The notes below the pieces were generated by a model. That model worked only from the letters and a program-made list of their open reading frames with translations. It did not search any database and had not been told where the DNA came from. Positions 53,508-61,337 of a stretch of 61,951 bases of DNA are shown here, in pieces. The position numbers and the translations under genes were made by a program. The DNA is from a virus (Duplodnaviria > Caudoviricetes). Location: positions 1-61,951 of the IMG/VR virus record IMGVR_UViG_3300017971_000301, one strand, 5' to 3'. Position 1 is the first letter of the stretch, and every line of letters begins with the position of its first letter.

Positions 53508-53843
53508 ATGAATTTGGATCTTATGGAGCCCACCATTATCTCTGATGGAGAAACCATGACTCTGAGGTTGCCGGATGGAGCCACCTTTTCCTTCAAATTC
53601 ATCTTGCAACAAATGGATCTGAGGTCTTCTCCGGAAATACCCATAATGATGGATGATCCGAGTGGTTGGAAATCCACAGTTCTTGCTCCTCACCGATCAG
53701 CGGCCCTGTCAATTGAGATAGTCCCTACTGGACCGATTCTATATTCAGAGGGTGATGAAGATCCCACACCGATCGATCAGTTTGAAGGTGTTTCGGTTCT
53801 GGATCTGTTCAAAGCAATCAATCGAAAACTGGATAAAAGATGA
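53508..53843 (+). CDS. hypothetical protein
   Basis: AGGAG RBS; ATGA-coupled to the helicase. Confidence 0.6.
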   Translation: MNLDLMEPTIISDGETMTLRLPDGATFSFKFILQQMDLRSSPEIPIMMDDPSGWKSTVLAPHRSAALSIEIVPTGPILYSEGDEDPTPIDQFEGVSVLDLFKAINRKLDKR

Positions 53844-55564
53844 AATACGAATTCAAGACTGAGCCCTATACCTTTCAACGTGAAGCCCTGAGACGAGGAT
53901 GGAACAAACCATTCTTCGGATATCTGATGGACCGGGGAACCGGGAAAACCAAAGTCACAATCGACAATGCCGGTATCCTCTTCACCCAAGACGCTGCCAT
54001 TCAGGGAATGTTGATAATTGCTCCAAACGAAGTTCATAATCGCTGGGTTACTGAACAAATCCCATTGCATTTGCCTGATTATATAAAAAGGAATGCCCAT
54101 GTCTGGGATAACAACAAAGCCAAGACCAAAAAGGGTAAGGCAGCATTGGAAACCCTGTTCGAACCATTCAATCCTGAGGATCCTATCTTACAGATCCTCT
54201 CAATGAATGTAGAAGCCTTCCAGACAGGCAATGCCAAAAACTTGGCTTATAACTTCTGCCGAGCACACCATGTCTTCTTAGTTGTGGATGAATCCACCAG
54301 AATCAAAACACCCAGCACGAAGAGAACTAAAGCTATTTTGAAGTTGACCAACATGGTTCCATATCGCCGAATTCTAACCGGGAATGATGTGACCCGGTCT
54401 CCGTTCGATGTGTTTTCTCAGTATCAGTTTCTTCATCACGACTTCTGGGGGAGTAAAAACTATTATTGGTTTCAGCAACGATATGCAGAATACGAGAAAC
54501 AGTACGCTTCAGTAAAGAAAACCAAGAACAGAATCAAGTGTCCCGAATGCAATAAGATTATTAATCTGGCGGTTGGTAGGTATTATAACAAAGCCCGAGC
54601 AATTTGGCAACATTTTTACAAGTGTCCTGAATGCCAGATTCAACTCACCTGGACACCGATCAAAAATCGAAAGGCCGGCCGAATGCACTATTTTTTACAC
54701 TTGGTTGGTAGTGATCGAAAGAGGGAGGTTTCAGATATAGCATTCATTCGAGAGCTTCGAGAAATCAACGAGAATCAAGGATTGCGGGAATACCCAAAGC
54801 TTCTATATTACAAGAATCTGGAAGAACTAAGAGCGAAGATTGCTCCCCACGTGTTTCGAATCCTGAAGAAAGATTGTATGGACTTGCCGGAGAAAATCTA
54901 TGCTCCTATTTATTGCGAAATGAATCAGGAACAAAGAACAGCCTACGAGGAGCTGAGGGATAACTTGTACACAGAGTATGAAGGGGAAGAATTGACAGTC
55001 GCCAATAAGATATCTCTAATGGTTAGGTTCCGGCAGATAGTGGGTGGTTTCTTTCCCGATACAGATCCCCCAAAACTTCTCGGAAACTCAAACCCCAAAA
55101 TGGATCGTCTGTTGTACGATCTGGAAGACATAGACGAGGAGGCCATTATTATTTGGTCTGTATTCACGGCCGAACTAAAATTCATCAGTAAAACTTTAAG
55201 GAAGAAATATCCCGATGAAACAACAGCCTTGTATTACGGAAATACTAAAAAGTCTGATCGTAAACAGATCATCGATGCTTTCCAGAAAGGACAGATTCGT
55301 TTTCTTGTTGCGAATCCTGCCACGGCTGGTACTGGACTTAATCTACAACGGTCTACTTTGCACTATTATTTTTCTGACTCCTTCCGACTCGAAGATAGAT
55401 GGCAATCAGAAGATCGATCACATCGTCGAGGCCAAGTTAACCATGTTGTTTATAAGGACATTATTATCAAAGGAACCATTGACGATACGATCAGGAAGTC
55501 TCGAGAAACAAAAACAGAAATAGCGGACTTCTTCAGGGAATACAAGATTGAGGATTTGGTATAA
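53840..55564 (+). CDS. SNF2-like (SF2) helicase with an inserted zinc-ribbon domain
   Basis: MDRGTGKT, VVDEST.IK, RRILTG, DLPEK, IIWSVF, GTGLNLQ, QSEDRSHR.GQ. Confidence 0.92.
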   Translation: MKYEFKTEPYTFQREALRRGWNKPFFGYLMDRGTGKTKVTIDNAGILFTQDAAIQGMLIIAPNEVHNRWVTEQIPLHLPDYIKRNAHVWDNNKAKTKKGKAALETLFEPFNPEDPILQILSMNVEAFQTGNAKNLAYNFCRAHHVFLVVDESTRIKTPSTKRTKAILKLTNMVPYRRILTGNDVTRSPFDVFSQYQFLHHDFWGSKNYYWFQQRYAEYEKQYASVKKTKNRIKCPECNKIINLAVGRYYNKARAIWQHFYKCPECQIQLTWTPIKNRKAGRMHYFLHLVGSDRKREVSDIAFIRELREINENQGLREYPKLLYYKNLEELRAKIAPHVFRILKKDCMDLPEKIYAPIYCEMNQEQRTAYEELRDNLYTEYEGEELTVANKISLMVRFRQIVGGFFPDTDPPKLLGNSNPKMDRLLYDLEDIDEEAIIIWSVFTAELKFISKTLRKKYPDETTALYYGNTKKSDRKQIIDAFQKGQIRFLVANPATAGTGLNLQRSTLHYYFSDSFRLEDRWQSEDRSHRRGQVNHVVYKDIIIKGTIDDTIRKSRETKTEIADFFREYKIEDLV

Positions 55565-55765
55565 GTGGATTATTCTGATTGTTCTGTTTGTGTGTTTGAC
55601 CAAGCAGAGGAACAACTCAAACTCACCAAGAACATATGGAAGGAGGAATTAATCAAAACAGATCCAAACAACGAATACCTCGCCATGGCCATTACTATCG
55701 ACGAAGGCAAAAGAGCAGTTATAATCAAACGCTACAAACTCTTCAACAAAAGGAGATCACTTTGA
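55565..55765 (+). CDS. hypothetical protein (3' part lies in the A/C-rich patch)
   Basis: GTG start; codons ending in C/A dominate from about 55600. Confidence 0.45.
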   Translation: MDYSDCSVCVFDQAEEQLKLTKNIWKEELIKTDPNNEYLAMAITIDEGKRAVIIKRYKLFNKRRSL

Positions 55766-55911
55766 AACCAGAACAATTCCTCAAACTCATCAAAGTCTTG
55801 TGGACAATCTTATATCCAACCATCGAGAAACACGTCACCGACAGCAAAAACCCTTATGACAACCTCATACTAGACATCCTCGACAAAATCATCATGAAGG
55901 GCAACATCTAA
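55762..55911 (+). CDS. small hypothetical protein (49 aa)
   Basis: AAGGAG RBS + TTG; TAATG-coupled to the next ORF. Confidence 0.55.
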   Translation: MKPEQFLKLIKVLWTILYPTIEKHVTDSKNPYDNLILDILDKIIMKGNI

Positions 55912-56075
55912 TGAAAACCAACAAATTCAGTCTATCCCACTACAAACTACTCATCGGCAACATGGGCAGGCTCATCCCGATCGCCTGCATCGAAGTACTC
56001 CCAGGCGACATCTTTCAACACCGAACCAACATTACGATCAGAATAGATTGCGATTGGAAATTACCATGGAAATAA
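55911..56075 (+). pseudogene. truncated Microviridae major capsid protein (VP1/F)-like N-terminal fragment, 54 aa
   Basis: Hand translation MKTNKFSLSHYKLLIGNMGRLIPIACIEVLPGDIFQHRTNITIRIDCDWKLPWK*; matches the F.LSH...G.L.P....EVLPGD.F....IR VP1 N-terminal motif as I recall it. Confidence 0.72.
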
Positions 56076-56174
56076 TCAAACTAGAACTGATCATATTAAT
56101 TATGGTCTGGATATTGATTGGAGTTTATCTAGTATGGTATTTCCATTATATTTTACTTAGAAAGGAGACAAGTA

Positions 56175-56960
56175 ATGAACGGCAGAAAAACGAAACAGCT
56201 CAGACATCAGATGAACATATCGCATCCTATACATGCACCTTGGCAATGGCGATTGAAGAAGAAACAAGCGACGAAGGAAAACAAACCATCGACAGTTCCT
56301 CAGACTGCGGCCAGAATTAGCAAGAAAAGGCATTCATGGGAGAGTCGACAAGATTTCAAAAAGCGACGAACAGTTTCGAACGATCGCCGACGAACCAGAG
56401 AAAAGGCTATTAGAATATTCGGGACTTTGATCGCTGCTATATTTTTGTTCATACTTGCAGGATGCGCCGGTTGGTCTATCAACGGGATTACCCTCCAGGA
56501 AATAGATGAAAGTTCTACTTCCAACCGACTGGTTATGCTTGCTGGAGTGGCCACTTCTTTCGGGACCCATTTCGCAGGTCACGCAGTCTATTATGAATTG
56601 AATAATATTGACTGGCGATTGGAAGGATTCTCTGAAATGATCCTGAACGAGGGTGAACTATCAGAATCTCAAAGAGAAAACTGCGGGCGGGCCGGCTTCA
56701 TATCCCAATTGGCAATTGGGGTTCTCCTAAAGACATTTGCAAAAGATAACCCGTTTACTACTGGATATCTAGTGGGAACTACGATTGAGATCTGGGGATA
56801 TCCCCTTACTGTGCGAACTGAGGGCGCCATAGATTGGATGAACAGTGAGAGTGAATGGGTAATATACAGCACTATTGCTGGTTTCTTACTAATCGACAAG
56901 GAGGCAAACGATGCCACTTGGTGCCCGCTAGAGGATGCAGACGATGGCGAAGATACTTAA
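56175..56960 (+). CDS. membrane/lipoprotein-like protein with a basic N-terminal extension
   Basis: Arg/Lys-rich N-terminus, internal IAAIFLFILAGC lipobox-like segment, several hydrophobic helices. Confidence 0.55.
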   Translation: MNGRKTKQLRHQMNISHPIHAPWQWRLKKKQATKENKPSTVPQTAARISKKRHSWESRQDFKKRRTVSNDRRRTREKAIRIFGTLIAAIFLFILAGCAGWSINGITLQEIDESSTSNRLVMLAGVATSFGTHFAGHAVYYELNNIDWRLEGFSEMILNEGELSESQRENCGRAGFISQLAIGVLLKTFAKDNPFTTGYLVGTTIEIWGYPLTVRTEGAIDWMNSESEWVIYSTIAGFLLIDKEANDATWCPLEDADDGEDT

Positions 56961-58359: not shown

Positions 58360-58992
58360 GTGCCAAAGAAAAAGAAACCTACCGAAGATATTTTTGCCGA
58401 GATGGAAGACGAGCAGAAGAAGTCTGTTACCGAGGCCGATCTAGCCACACTTTCTGATCTGGCAAAACAACAAAAAACCCTGGAAGAAGAGGCTGATGAA
58501 TCCCAAGCAAGAAAGATCTATGATATGTTGGTCAAGCGGGGGATATCTTTAGCGACAATCGATCAAGCCCGCTCCTTACTGAATACTGATTACCAGAACA
58601 TTCGGAATAACCAGTTGCCAGAGAAGATGGAAGAACTGGGATTCGCCAGTTTCGAATTGAAAGACGGTGGATCGATCCGTGTAAAAGAAGGAATCTCTGT
58701 TAGCGTTTTGGACAAACCCAAACTGATCAACACAATAATTCAACGGGGATATCAGGACGCAGTGAAGAACCAGGTCGTTGTGAAATTCCCAATGGAAGGC
58801 AGAAAGTCAGCCCGGAACTTTGTTAAATATGTAACCAGATACTATAAGGACAGGGATAAATGTGAAATGGTTGAATCTGAAGATATCCATTCCGCAACCC
58901 TGAAGAAATTGATGAAGACATTCAAGGAAGAGGGTAAAAGTTACCCTGATTCTGTGAGTGTGTTCGAATACAAGTTCACCAAAATCACATAA
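58360..58992 (+). CDS. hypothetical protein of the replication module
   Basis: AAGGAG+GTG; LPE.M.E.G...F.L.DG, IH..TLK pattern often seen before phage SSB genes. Confidence 0.7.
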   Translation: MPKKKKPTEDIFAEMEDEQKKSVTEADLATLSDLAKQQKTLEEEADESQARKIYDMLVKRGISLATIDQARSLLNTDYQNIRNNQLPEKMEELGFASFELKDGGSIRVKEGISVSVLDKPKLINTIIQRGYQDAVKNQVVVKFPMEGRKSARNFVKYVTRYYKDRDKCEMVESEDIHSATLKKLMKTFKEEGKSYPDSVSVFEYKFTKIT

Positions 58993-59837: not shown

Positions 59838-61337
59838 TTGAGCGGGATTGTTATGAAGTTTTCTTCGCTATTCAAAGGCAGGGATGACGCCTATGGTGTT
59901 TACCTGATTGAGAAAGGGTCGAAGAAGAAGGTTCAGGGACGAGCCTTTACAAAAACCGAGCCCTTGACCGAACAGCATTATAAGGATCACTTATCAGGGA
60001 AAACAGGTCTAGGCGTCATCCCTATCATGTCTGATAATACATGTTTGTGGGGAGCAATAGATGTAGACGATTACAAAGCTCCCCTGGAAACTCTCAGTAA
60101 ACAAGTGGAGGGGATGGAACTTCCGCTTGTTTTGTGTCGCAGCAAATCCGGAGGAGCACACCTTTATTTGTTCCTGAAAAACCCAATTCCCGCTGTTTTA
60201 CTTAGAGATAAACTGTTTGAGTTTGCCGCGGCAATTGGGTATCCCAATTCTGAATTGTTCCCGAAACAGGTTGAGTTTGAATCAGATGATGAAGTTGGCA
60301 ATTGGATTAATCTGCCATACTTCGATGAGGAACGAACAACTCGTTATGCTTTGAAAGATGGAAAACCTTTAGATCTAAAACAGTTTTTGAAGTATGCCGG
60401 GCAAAAGGTAGTCACTGAAGAAGATTTGAAGAACTTTGAATTAAAGCTGGTTGATGGATTAGAAGATGCTCCTCCGTGTTTACAATACTTGGCAACGATT
60501 GGGATTACGGCAGGGCAAAAGGATTCTTGCCTATTCAATTTCGCTGTATATTGCAAGCTGAAGGACAAAGATAATTGGGAAAAGAATCTTGAAACAATCA
60601 ACCAGACTTATGTTAAGCCGCCGGCGAGGGCTGAGACAATATTAAAGGTTGTCAAGCCACACAGGAAGAAATCTTATTTCTATACGTGTGAACAGTCCCC
60701 GCTTAAGGATTATTGTAATCGAGAGTTGTGTTTAGCACGTCTATTTGGGATTGGTCAATCTGACAAAGAACCAAAGATAAAGTTAGGGCTCCTACGGAAA
60801 GTGGAAACCGAACCGCCGGTTTGGTATTTGGAAGTTGAAGGAACTGAATTGGAATTCCAGACAAAGGATTTGCTGGATCAGTTTAGATTTCGAAGGATTT
60901 GTTTTGAACGGATTCACCTTATTCCACCGACCCTGAAACCGGTCACATGGGATCGAATGCTTCAAGAACGATTAGATAAAGTGGAACGAATCGAGGCTCC
61001 AGAGGATGCTGGTCCTGAGGGACAGTTTAGGTTTCATTTGCAAAATTTTTGTACGATTGGGGTATCTGATGAAAAGGACGGATTACTTCGTGGACGACCC
61101 TGGACTGATGAAGAGAACAACTTAACTCATTTCGTTTCTGGTGATTTAATTAGATATTTGAACAGTAAGAAATTTTATCAATTTCCTGTTCACGAGGTCT
61201 ATGCTAACATCAGAAAACTAGAAGGTAAGAATAAAGTCCTGCGGATTAAAGGGAAAACGATTCGAGTCTGGTCGGTCCCGATATTCGAAAAACAAACCGA
61301 GGAGTTTGACTTGCCAGATATGGAGGACCCATTCTAA
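59838..61337 (+). CDS. AEP-superfamily DNA primase
   Basis: HL.G..GLGVIP, WGAIDVD, RSKSGGAHLYLF, FPKQ...GNWINLPY, PPC, C-terminal Cys cluster; start may be ATG 59853. Confidence 0.85.
   Translation: MSGIVMKFSSLFKGRDDAYGVYLIEKGSKKKVQGRAFTKTEPLTEQHYKDHLSGKTGLGVIPIMSDNTCLWGAIDVDDYKAPLETLSKQVEGMELPLVLCRSKSGGAHLYLFLKNPIPAVLLRDKLFEFAAAIGYPNSELFPKQVEFESDDEVGNWINLPYFDEERTTRYALKDGKPLDLKQFLKYAGQKVVTEEDLKNFELKLVDGLEDAPPCLQYLATIGITAGQKDSCLFNFAVYCKLKDKDNWEKNLETINQTYVKPPARAETILKVVKPHRKKSYFYTCEQSPLKDYCNRELCLARLFGIGQSDKEPKIKLGLLRKVETEPPVWYLEVEGTELEFQTKDLLDQFRFRRICFERIHLIPPTLKPVTWDRMLQERLDKVERIEAPEDAGPEGQFRFHLQNFCTIGVSDEKDGLLRGRPWTDEENNLTHFVSGDLIRYLNSKKFYQFPVHEVYANIRKLEGKNKVLRIKGKTIRVWSVPIFEKQTEEFDLPDMEDPF

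Follow-up and report, generated by a model that had tools for sequence, protein, structure and literature searches.

The window analysed here is a linear IMG/VR record of 61,951 bp, with a CheckV completeness of about 85%. Its genes include those for a tape measure protein, a tail fibre, a portal, a large terminase, a head-morphogenesis protein, a family-A-like DNA polymerase and a methyltransferase, and the genome is therefore that of a tailed double-stranded DNA phage. In the + strand replication and nucleotide-metabolism module of this phage, directly downstream of an SNF2-family helicase gene, lie three short open reading frames (ORFs) of 66, 49 and 54 codons. The third begins as the major capsid protein (VP1, or F) of the Microviridae does, the first ends much like their replication-initiator protein VP4, and a block of about 448 bp running through all three (~55598-56045) has a codon usage foreign to the phage. 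The parts of the locus are as follows:

55565 to 55597, + strand: native 5' part of the chimeric 66-codon ORF; GTG start straight after the helicase TAA and in the same frame; 11 codons, 8 of the 11 ending in T.
55598 to 55765, + strand: putative VP4 tail, foreign block part 1; the last ~55 codons of a microvirus replication-initiator gene with their stop, joined to the native start in the same reading frame.
55762 to 55911, + strand: 49-codon ORF, foreign block part 2; TTG start overlapping the stop of the 66-codon ORF as TTGA, with AAGGAG 6 nucleotides (nt) upstream; ends in the TAATG of the next ORF.
55911 to 56045, + strand: VP1/F head, foreign block part 3; the first 45 codons of a gene for a microvirus major capsid protein; ATG overlapping the previous stop as TAATG.
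56046 to 56075, + strand: native 3' tail of the 54-codon ORF (hereafter the stub); 9 unrelated codons (DCDWKLPWK) and TAA; T-rich, C-poor composition again.

The ORFs form an unbroken chain, in which the helicase TAA is followed by GTG, the next two junctions read TTGA and TAATG, and the stub overlaps the next ATG by 10 nt. The original prediction, made from the sequence without database searches, had described a 54-codon ORF at 55911-56075 with its sequence, unrelated tail and stop, coupled through TAATG to a 49-codon ORF with a good ribosome-binding site; all of this is present, the ATG overlapping the TAA and the AAGGAG preceding the TTG at 55762.

The stub carries the start of a microvirus capsid gene

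Residues 1-45 of the 54-amino-acid (aa) product of ORF 55911-56075 (+ strand) correspond to the N-terminus of Microviridae VP1/F and are followed by 9 unrelated residues. Against the Pfam family Phage_F (PF02305) the stub scored 25.8 bits (E 5.7e-6, cut-off 25), residues 4-45 aligning to profile positions 11-52 of 501. This match is marginal, since a six-frame search of the record gave 22.1 bits, under the cut-off; no further Phage_F match was found elsewhere in the record. The PHROG family phrog_514 (major head protein) matched with E 4.3e-11, and a clade-specific model made from 20 VP1 N-termini gave 78 bits, extending from Met1 to residue 45. In a tblastn search of a database of 50,697 phage records the stub matched 559 at E<=0.01, and the 30 listed were all microviruses, which matched at the beginning of their capsid genes with 55.6-64.3% identity over 42-46 residues. 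At E<=10 there were 2,331 records, and 60 of 60 rows sampled evenly down the ranking were microviruses, of 1.6-6.3 kb. The best single relative (L092) is 65.9% identical over 44 residues. Among solved structures, stub residues 7-37 align to residues 13-43 of both phiX174 F and SpV4 VP1, with E about 0.2. The strongly conserved N-terminal positions L8, G19, P23 and LPGD30-33 are all kept. These sequence comparisons show the head to be microviral and to include the true start of VP1, and they bear out the likeness that the original prediction had drawn from the VP1 motif.

A full-length VP1 is a single jelly roll of ~430-570 aa that builds a T=1 shell. At 54 aa the stub represents about 9% of such a protein; it is, judged by its length and alignment, a gene fragment that would be unable to form a capsid shell. 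A word-based protein search found neither a second phage nor any 29-95 aa protein carrying the stub, and no longer protein relatives of it.

Residues 25-42 of the stub, which hold the VP1 motif (I/L)E.LPGD.F.H.T.IT, resemble a leucine-rich-repeat unit. The top matches of the stub in a PDB sequence search were Toll ectodomains, with a whole-sequence E of 2.4e-5 that is summed over repeats; no single stretch passes. Such summed-repeat matches are a pitfall in the automated annotation of short VP1 fragments.

Codon usage sets the block apart from the phage

The original prediction had judged by eye that a patch of roughly 450 bp is A/C-rich and G-poor, with C-ending codons, and measurement agrees. 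The stretch 55603-56045 contains.39 A,.275 C,.147 G and.185 T. The GC skew of the block is about -0.3 (z = -4.3 against the + strand gene regions of the window), a value that is extreme only among + strand coding stretches, minus-strand genes yielding similar raw + strand values. At third codon positions the three ORFs pooled have C.48 and T.07, compared with A.26, C.18, G.24 and T.33 in 45 pooled phage ORFs (chi-square 113, p 2e-24). Among 986 windows of 147 codons taken from phage ORFs the highest value for C is.38, below that of the block, and single phage ORFs (n=45) range from.10 to.34. Broken down by part, the third-position frequencies are:

66-codon ORF from codon 14 on: C.38, T.09.
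49-codon ORF: C.53, T.06.
VP1 head: C.56, T.07.
45 phage ORFs, pooled: C.18, T.33.

The codon usage of the whole block is thus foreign. The third-position bias runs through three reading frames, which indicates that these frames were the coding ones in the donor and that all three pieces derive from the same source.

On the left, according to a likelihood change-point, foreign sequence begins at 55598, following the eleventh codon of the 66-codon ORF; on the right, the limit at 56045 is set by the end of VP1 homology at residue 45. When the six-frame segments of at least 60 aa (n=2,344) from the microvirus loci were compared with the window by tblastn, 114 of the 124 matches at E<=0.01 were to the stub, the other 10 being scattered and weak, and no other microviral piece was found in the window by this search. 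No terminator-like site was detected at 55500-56200, and promoter-like matches in the same interval were weak only, in numbers near the shuffled expectation.

An imperfect inverted repeat flanks the block (55571-55591 and 56025-56045, 17 of 21 positions complementary), with a perfect 9-mer, TATTCTGAT / ATCAGAATA. Its left arm lies in native sequence just 5' of the left junction and its right arm stops exactly at the last VP1-homologous base. As to chance, 5 of 200 segment-wise shuffles match as well somewhere in the 900 bases.

The 66-codon ORF ends like VP4

The 66-codon ORF (55565-55765) reads as a fusion of about 11 native and about 55 foreign codons. T makes up 69% of the third positions in its first 13 codons, and its C-terminus, ...DEGKRAVIIKRYKLFNKRRSL-stop, is like that of VP4. 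With a model of 14 VP4 tails the ORF scored highest among 1,840 six-frame segments (10.8 bits, E 0.047), and 0 of 3,000 residue shuffles reached its score. With a model of 82 tails it again ranked first of 1,840, at 15.3 bits (E 0.0019), the runner-up segment scoring 6.3 bits; none of 3,000 shuffles reached 15.3 bits (maximum 8.6), and four tailed-phage loci attained at most 7.4 bits. ORF residues 46-66 align to positions 40-60 of this larger model and the two C-termini coincide. Homology to VP4 covers the last 21 codons only, the remainder of the foreign part being assigned by codon usage. Since the score rose with more data, the match is anchored at the end and its position is the one that synteny predicts, the identification of this C-terminus as a microvirus VP4 tail appears moderately supported.

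The N-terminal zinc-binding cysteines and the catalytic core of VP4 (GEYG and HYH columns, invariant in an alignment of the ~300-aa protein) are absent from the 66-aa product, which aligns to the tail only. No Pfam or PHROG replication family matched the ORF; tblastn against phages gave only E=4 matches, to a Lactobacillus phage tail gene; and no longer protein relatives were found, the ESM Atlas giving nothing useful. A protein identical to the 66-aa product is recorded for 7 contigs, which reach a length of about 62.5 kb.

Two further properties of the ORF may be recorded. Its GTG lies in frame directly after the helicase TAA (55562-55567), such that read-through of one stop would add 66 residues to the helicase. 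Were 55598-56045 excised, the 11 native codons at the start and the 9 of the native tail would form a 20-codon, Cys-containing mini-ORF, a conjecture, as the junctions are known to a few bases.

Order of VP4 and VP1 in microviruses

According to the excerpts of PMC9239249 used here, the circular order VP1-VP2-VP4 is the rule in most microvirus families, which places VP4 upstream of VP1. We fetched 80 further microvirus loci from IMG/VR by VP4 similarity. A VP4 ORF was accompanied by a VP1 head in 72 of them, and in 70 of these the stop codon of VP4 overlaps the start of VP1 (by 4 nt in 67 and by 1 nt in 3), a proportion that describes a clade chosen by similarity to the VP4 of this arrangement rather than all microviruses. 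Among 18 annotated microvirus records, VP4 abuts VP1 in 11, another gene occupies that place in 6 (from Ciona), and a 73-codon hypothetical ORF lies between VP4 and VP1 in one (L018).

In the IMG/VR microvirus contig L091 (4,935 bases), the real VP1 is closely preceded by a 76-codon ORF (2364-2591) in which a VP1-like N-terminus and residues from further along VP1 are joined to another copy of the VP4 tail. Either the VP4/VP1 junction has been duplicated or the assembly of a circular genome overlaps itself; as a duplication, the ORF would indicate that the VP4/VP1 junction can rearrange. In the metagenome contig L010, with about 2x coverage, VP4 is split across two frames, probably by sequencing error; this VP4 was excluded from the VP4 protein alignment, but both VP4-tail models include its C-terminal 60 residues.

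The 49-codon ORF

The 49-codon ORF is the inner part of a listed ORF, 55636-55911. A match of its peptide to the Microviridae, which the original prediction had proposed as a check, was not obtained: there was none in 101 microvirus loci (best E 0.61) and none by tblastn against phages at E<=10. Pfam and PHROG gave no match, and alignment-based scans of IMG/VR and GTDB genomes gave no relatives. The sole relative, returned by an exhaustive HMMER search of 1.84 billion representatives, is a 49-aa protein (P0001) from a 524-bp contig, 48% identical with E 7.7e-4.

The possibility that the ORF is a degenerate duplicate, with a VP1-like start and a VP4-like tail, had arisen from the pair MKPEQF and MKTNKF, the TTGA overlap, and blast alignments extending upstream of the ATG. 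It was rejected, the ORF scoring -2.1 bits on the VP4-tail model and giving no match to the VP1-head model.

Codon usage is the one line of evidence pointing to a microviral origin of this ORF. A donor in which a small gene separated VP4 from VP1 is favoured, on account of the donor-like codon usage and the precedent of L018. Of the proposal that a piece of a microvirus genome, comprising small upstream genes and the VP1 start, had entered the phage, the VP1 start has thus proved genuine, while the upstream part is not simply small genes: the 66-codon ORF appears to be a fusion with a VP4 tail, and the 49-codon ORF is without a microviral relative.

The insert is present in independent assemblies

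All sampled words of 55000-56700 are contained in three public metagenome runs of sediment and seawater, which come from three studies. In each run one Logan contig spans 54800-56900 with 0 differences, joints or loose ends; the three contigs measure 62,465, 57,050 and 57,050 bases, at a depth of 16-79. The block is present in independent assemblies, and because in all three runs a contig reads through both junctions without any difference, an assembly chimera, which the original prediction had wanted excluded by reads at both junctions, is unlikely. No run holding only the block was listed, a weak observation as many runs are not covered.

The insertion site and the search for a donor

Four relatives were found by helicase similarity, at 37-45% identity, and they carry unrelated genes downstream. 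The nearest comparison is with L004, where the helicase is followed by about 290 bp and then by a homologue of the window gene at 58360-58992; the window has 2.8 kb of small genes there. Because of this difference in length, the site of insertion is taken, from the sequence comparison, to be a variable accessory-gene stretch. A comparison of presence and absence in related genomes, as originally suggested, thus revealed a variable site and no empty one among four distant relatives.

Genomic context

The neighbouring genes in the module, all on the + strand, are:

53840 to 55564, + strand: SNF2-family helicase gene, native and directly upstream of the block; Pfam SNF2-rel_dom E 4.9e-15, Helicase_C E 2e-10, phrog_62 (DNA helicase) E 6e-96.
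56066 to 56320, + strand (ORF span 56048-56320, ATG at 56066): downstream ORF with a predicted N-terminal membrane helix; weak match to phrog_14464 'membrane protein', E 9e-4.
Gene order, + strand: SNF2 helicase (53840-55564), the three short ORFs, the small ORF with a membrane helix (ATG 56066), a 261-codon ORF, two small ORFs, ThyX, two Pam3 gp33/gp34-like genes, and a primase of the archaeo-eukaryotic primase (AEP) type.

The ATG at 56066 is the one overlapped for 10 nt by the last codons of the stub. The ORFs 56048-56320 and 56175-56960 (the 261-codon ORF) lie on the + strand in different frames and overlap by ~145 nt; the latter has a strong ribosome-binding-site-like sequence, GGAG 7 nt 5' of its ATG. 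The primase-like protein at 59838-61337, encoded next to the Pam3 gp33/gp34-like genes and ThyX, has a Pfam match to AEP-TOTE (E 1.6e-18), an archaeo-eukaryotic primase domain whose name comes from the TOTE conflict system. The helicase aligns end to end with that of L004. Its residues ~214-313 contain an additional segment of ~90 residues with two CPEC motifs and weak zinc-ribbon-type matches; the segment is present in L004 and missing in L005-L007, which align to residues 1-222 and 314-562 only.

No transfer RNA genes were found in the window. The nearest terminases are those of Cellulophaga, Croceibacter and Riemerella phages (Flavobacteriia), with 36-41% identity, a weak hint from sequence that the host may be among marine Flavobacteriia.

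Origin of the block

We consider the block to be a real, recent and probably neutral relic of recombination with a microvirus in a tailed phage, with a probability of roughly 0.7. The course of events would have been as follows. A single cell would have contained the tailed phage together with either a microvirus or a microviral remnant borne by the host, and illegitimate recombination would have inserted a microvirus segment of ~448 bp, spanning the VP4/VP1 junction, just downstream of the SNF2 helicase gene. The inserted segment would have been collinear, consisting of the VP4 3' end, the 49-codon ORF and the VP1 5' end, and the insertion either happened to keep, or was selected to keep, the unbroken chain of closely spaced ORFs. 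Three short coupled ORFs would have resulted: a native start with a VP4 tail (66 aa), an ORF without a family match (49 aa), and a VP1 head with 9 native codons (54 aa). The relic may be neutral and tolerated since the chain of overlapping starts and stops stays intact. The block is fixed in the phage as sampled, and the three ORFs are probably co-transcribed with the operon, as no terminator separates the block from its neighbours. Uneroded donor codon usage and three frames that are still open make the capture look recent, and the block most probably has no role at present. What we infer from these observations is that the block arose in a single event, by what mechanism it did so, that it is recent and that it lacks a function.

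Several points weigh against this account. The VP4 match is short (21 residues, 15 bits) and was looked for after the resemblance had been noticed. The 49-codon ORF is without a microviral relative, so another source is possible, and in the ESM Atlas it lies near hypothetical proteins of ~50 aa, one cluster of which is labelled Uroviricota on a single record, a lead only. No related phage with an empty site was found among the four helicase relatives, and the 261-aa neighbour gave no loci; for this reason the junctions are known only to within a few bases and a single event is presumed. No donor was found either: exact 8-residue words of the stub gave 2 microvirus loci in IMG/VR (53-56%), 1 in metagenome contigs (56%) and none in GTDB genomes. 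The nearest VP1 heads are only 53-66% identical, and the nearest microviruses examined have 36-63% GC and mostly a different third-position usage; a few marine or high-GC microviruses are rich in C at third positions, e.g. L021 (.41) and L025 (.50). The three runs may include the source sample, and the two with contigs of equal length may be one data set filed twice. The junction evidence consists of contigs, not raw reads, and contigs cannot show minor variants. Finally, intact frames and kept coupling are equally expected from selection for function.

Two explanations that would deny a microviral insertion carry little weight. The window is a metagenome-assembled viral record whose junctions were checked by contigs, and microvirus reads might have been joined into a phage contig; an internal insert of 448 bp, however, requires two false joins, reading frames are open and coupled at both junctions, and the contigs of a second assembler show the identical join in three runs, with no run listed that holds the block alone. 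An assembly chimera is accordingly very improbable. A chance or convergent motif, for which the leucine-rich-repeat-like residues 25-42 and the Toll matches among solved structures could be cited, is effectively refuted by the 78-bit VP1 match over residues 1-45, by the finding of microvirus capsid N-termini only in 90 of 90 rows inspected, and by the VP4-like tail adjoining it in canonical order. The other two alternatives concern the route and the role of the block. It might have come from the host chromosome, as part of a decayed integrated microvirus, rather than from a co-infecting one, a route that is compatible with a recent relic. Host DNA capture is common in tailed phages, integrated microviruses are known in Bacteroidota, and the terminase of the phage, as noted, is nearest to those of Flavobacteriia phages. 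We regard this route as unlikely: a search by exact words, which detects close relatives only, turned up no close VP1 head among 185,579 species represented by one genome each, and the three donor frames, still open, are at least equally compatible with a live donor or with very recent capture.

Domestication for interference would give the block a function, the expressed VP1 head, and perhaps the VP4 tail peptide, acting as a decoy that binds capsid, scaffold or replication partners of a competing microvirus in a shared host. All three ORFs are intact, with ribosome-binding-site-like sequences and stop/start overlaps, within a replication and nucleotide-metabolism operon; the stub retains the conserved VP1 positions listed above, and the block is identical in three runs. 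Nevertheless, nothing indicates a maintained family, as neither a second stub-bearing phage nor a 29-95 aa protein was found, and none was seen in IMG/VR, metagenome contigs or GTDB genomes. The 45 residues make up a small part of the jelly roll that would be unlikely to fold alone, and codon usage that has not been ameliorated fits recency without selection. A domesticated role is for these reasons quite improbable. Its fuller form, in which the VP1 head and the VP4 tail of a rival microvirus would both serve as expressed decoys sabotaging its assembly or replication during co-infection, is speculation and slightly less probable still; if true, it would be a phage-against-phage weapon made from a competitor's own hallmark genes, across viral realms.

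As a recombination relic, the block is direct sequence evidence that a siphovirus-like marine phage and a microvirus came together in the same cell, that DNA flow from Monodnaviria to Duplodnaviria is possible, and that microviral fragments survive in a fixed phage genome. It represents a rare physical link between two uncultivated viruses and their common host, the sharing of a host being a reasonable inference from recombination. The present evidence is a single small relic, and a screen of tailed-phage genomes for Phage_F and VP4 fragments could measure how frequent cross-realm recombination is.

Comparison with known systems

Compared to the VP1/F proteins of the Microviridae (PF02305, PHROG 514; solved examples phiX174 F, SpV4 VP1 and PDB 8des), the stub is alike from the initiator Met through the N-terminal motif, with 55-66% identity to metagenomic microviruses, and differs in comprising about 9% of the protein followed by 9 unrelated residues. 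VP1/F is normally encoded in a small circular single-stranded DNA genome beside VP4 and VP2, whereas the stub is located in a 61,951-bp tailed-phage contig with only a VP4-like tail upstream. The 66-codon ORF shares with microvirus VP4 ('replication initiator protein') the tail motif (consensus ...negk.lq.eaRekifkkrgsL-stop) and a stop overlapping the start of the next gene. It differs in holding the last ~55 codons only, fused to 11 native codons, and the next start is the TTG of the 49-codon ORF, not the VP1 ATG.

Mosaicism and moron-type insertions in tailed phages arise by illegitimate recombination. The block resembles such insertions in being short, foreign in composition and placed between conserved genes at a variable site, but it differs in its donor, a single-stranded DNA virus of the Microviridae and thus of another realm, in consisting of gene fragments, and in having no detected promoter-terminator pair. 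The excerpts of PMC9239249 report rare uptake of peptidases and methyltransferases by microviruses, with little gene exchange overall; the gene flow described there is into microviruses, while here it would have been out of a microvirus into a tailed phage, with hallmark genes. Within what a full-text literature search returned, no published report of microviral capsid or replication gene fragments inside a tailed phage was found. The process, phage mosaicism by illegitimate recombination, is a known one; the cross-realm donor and the cargo of hallmark genes are unusual.

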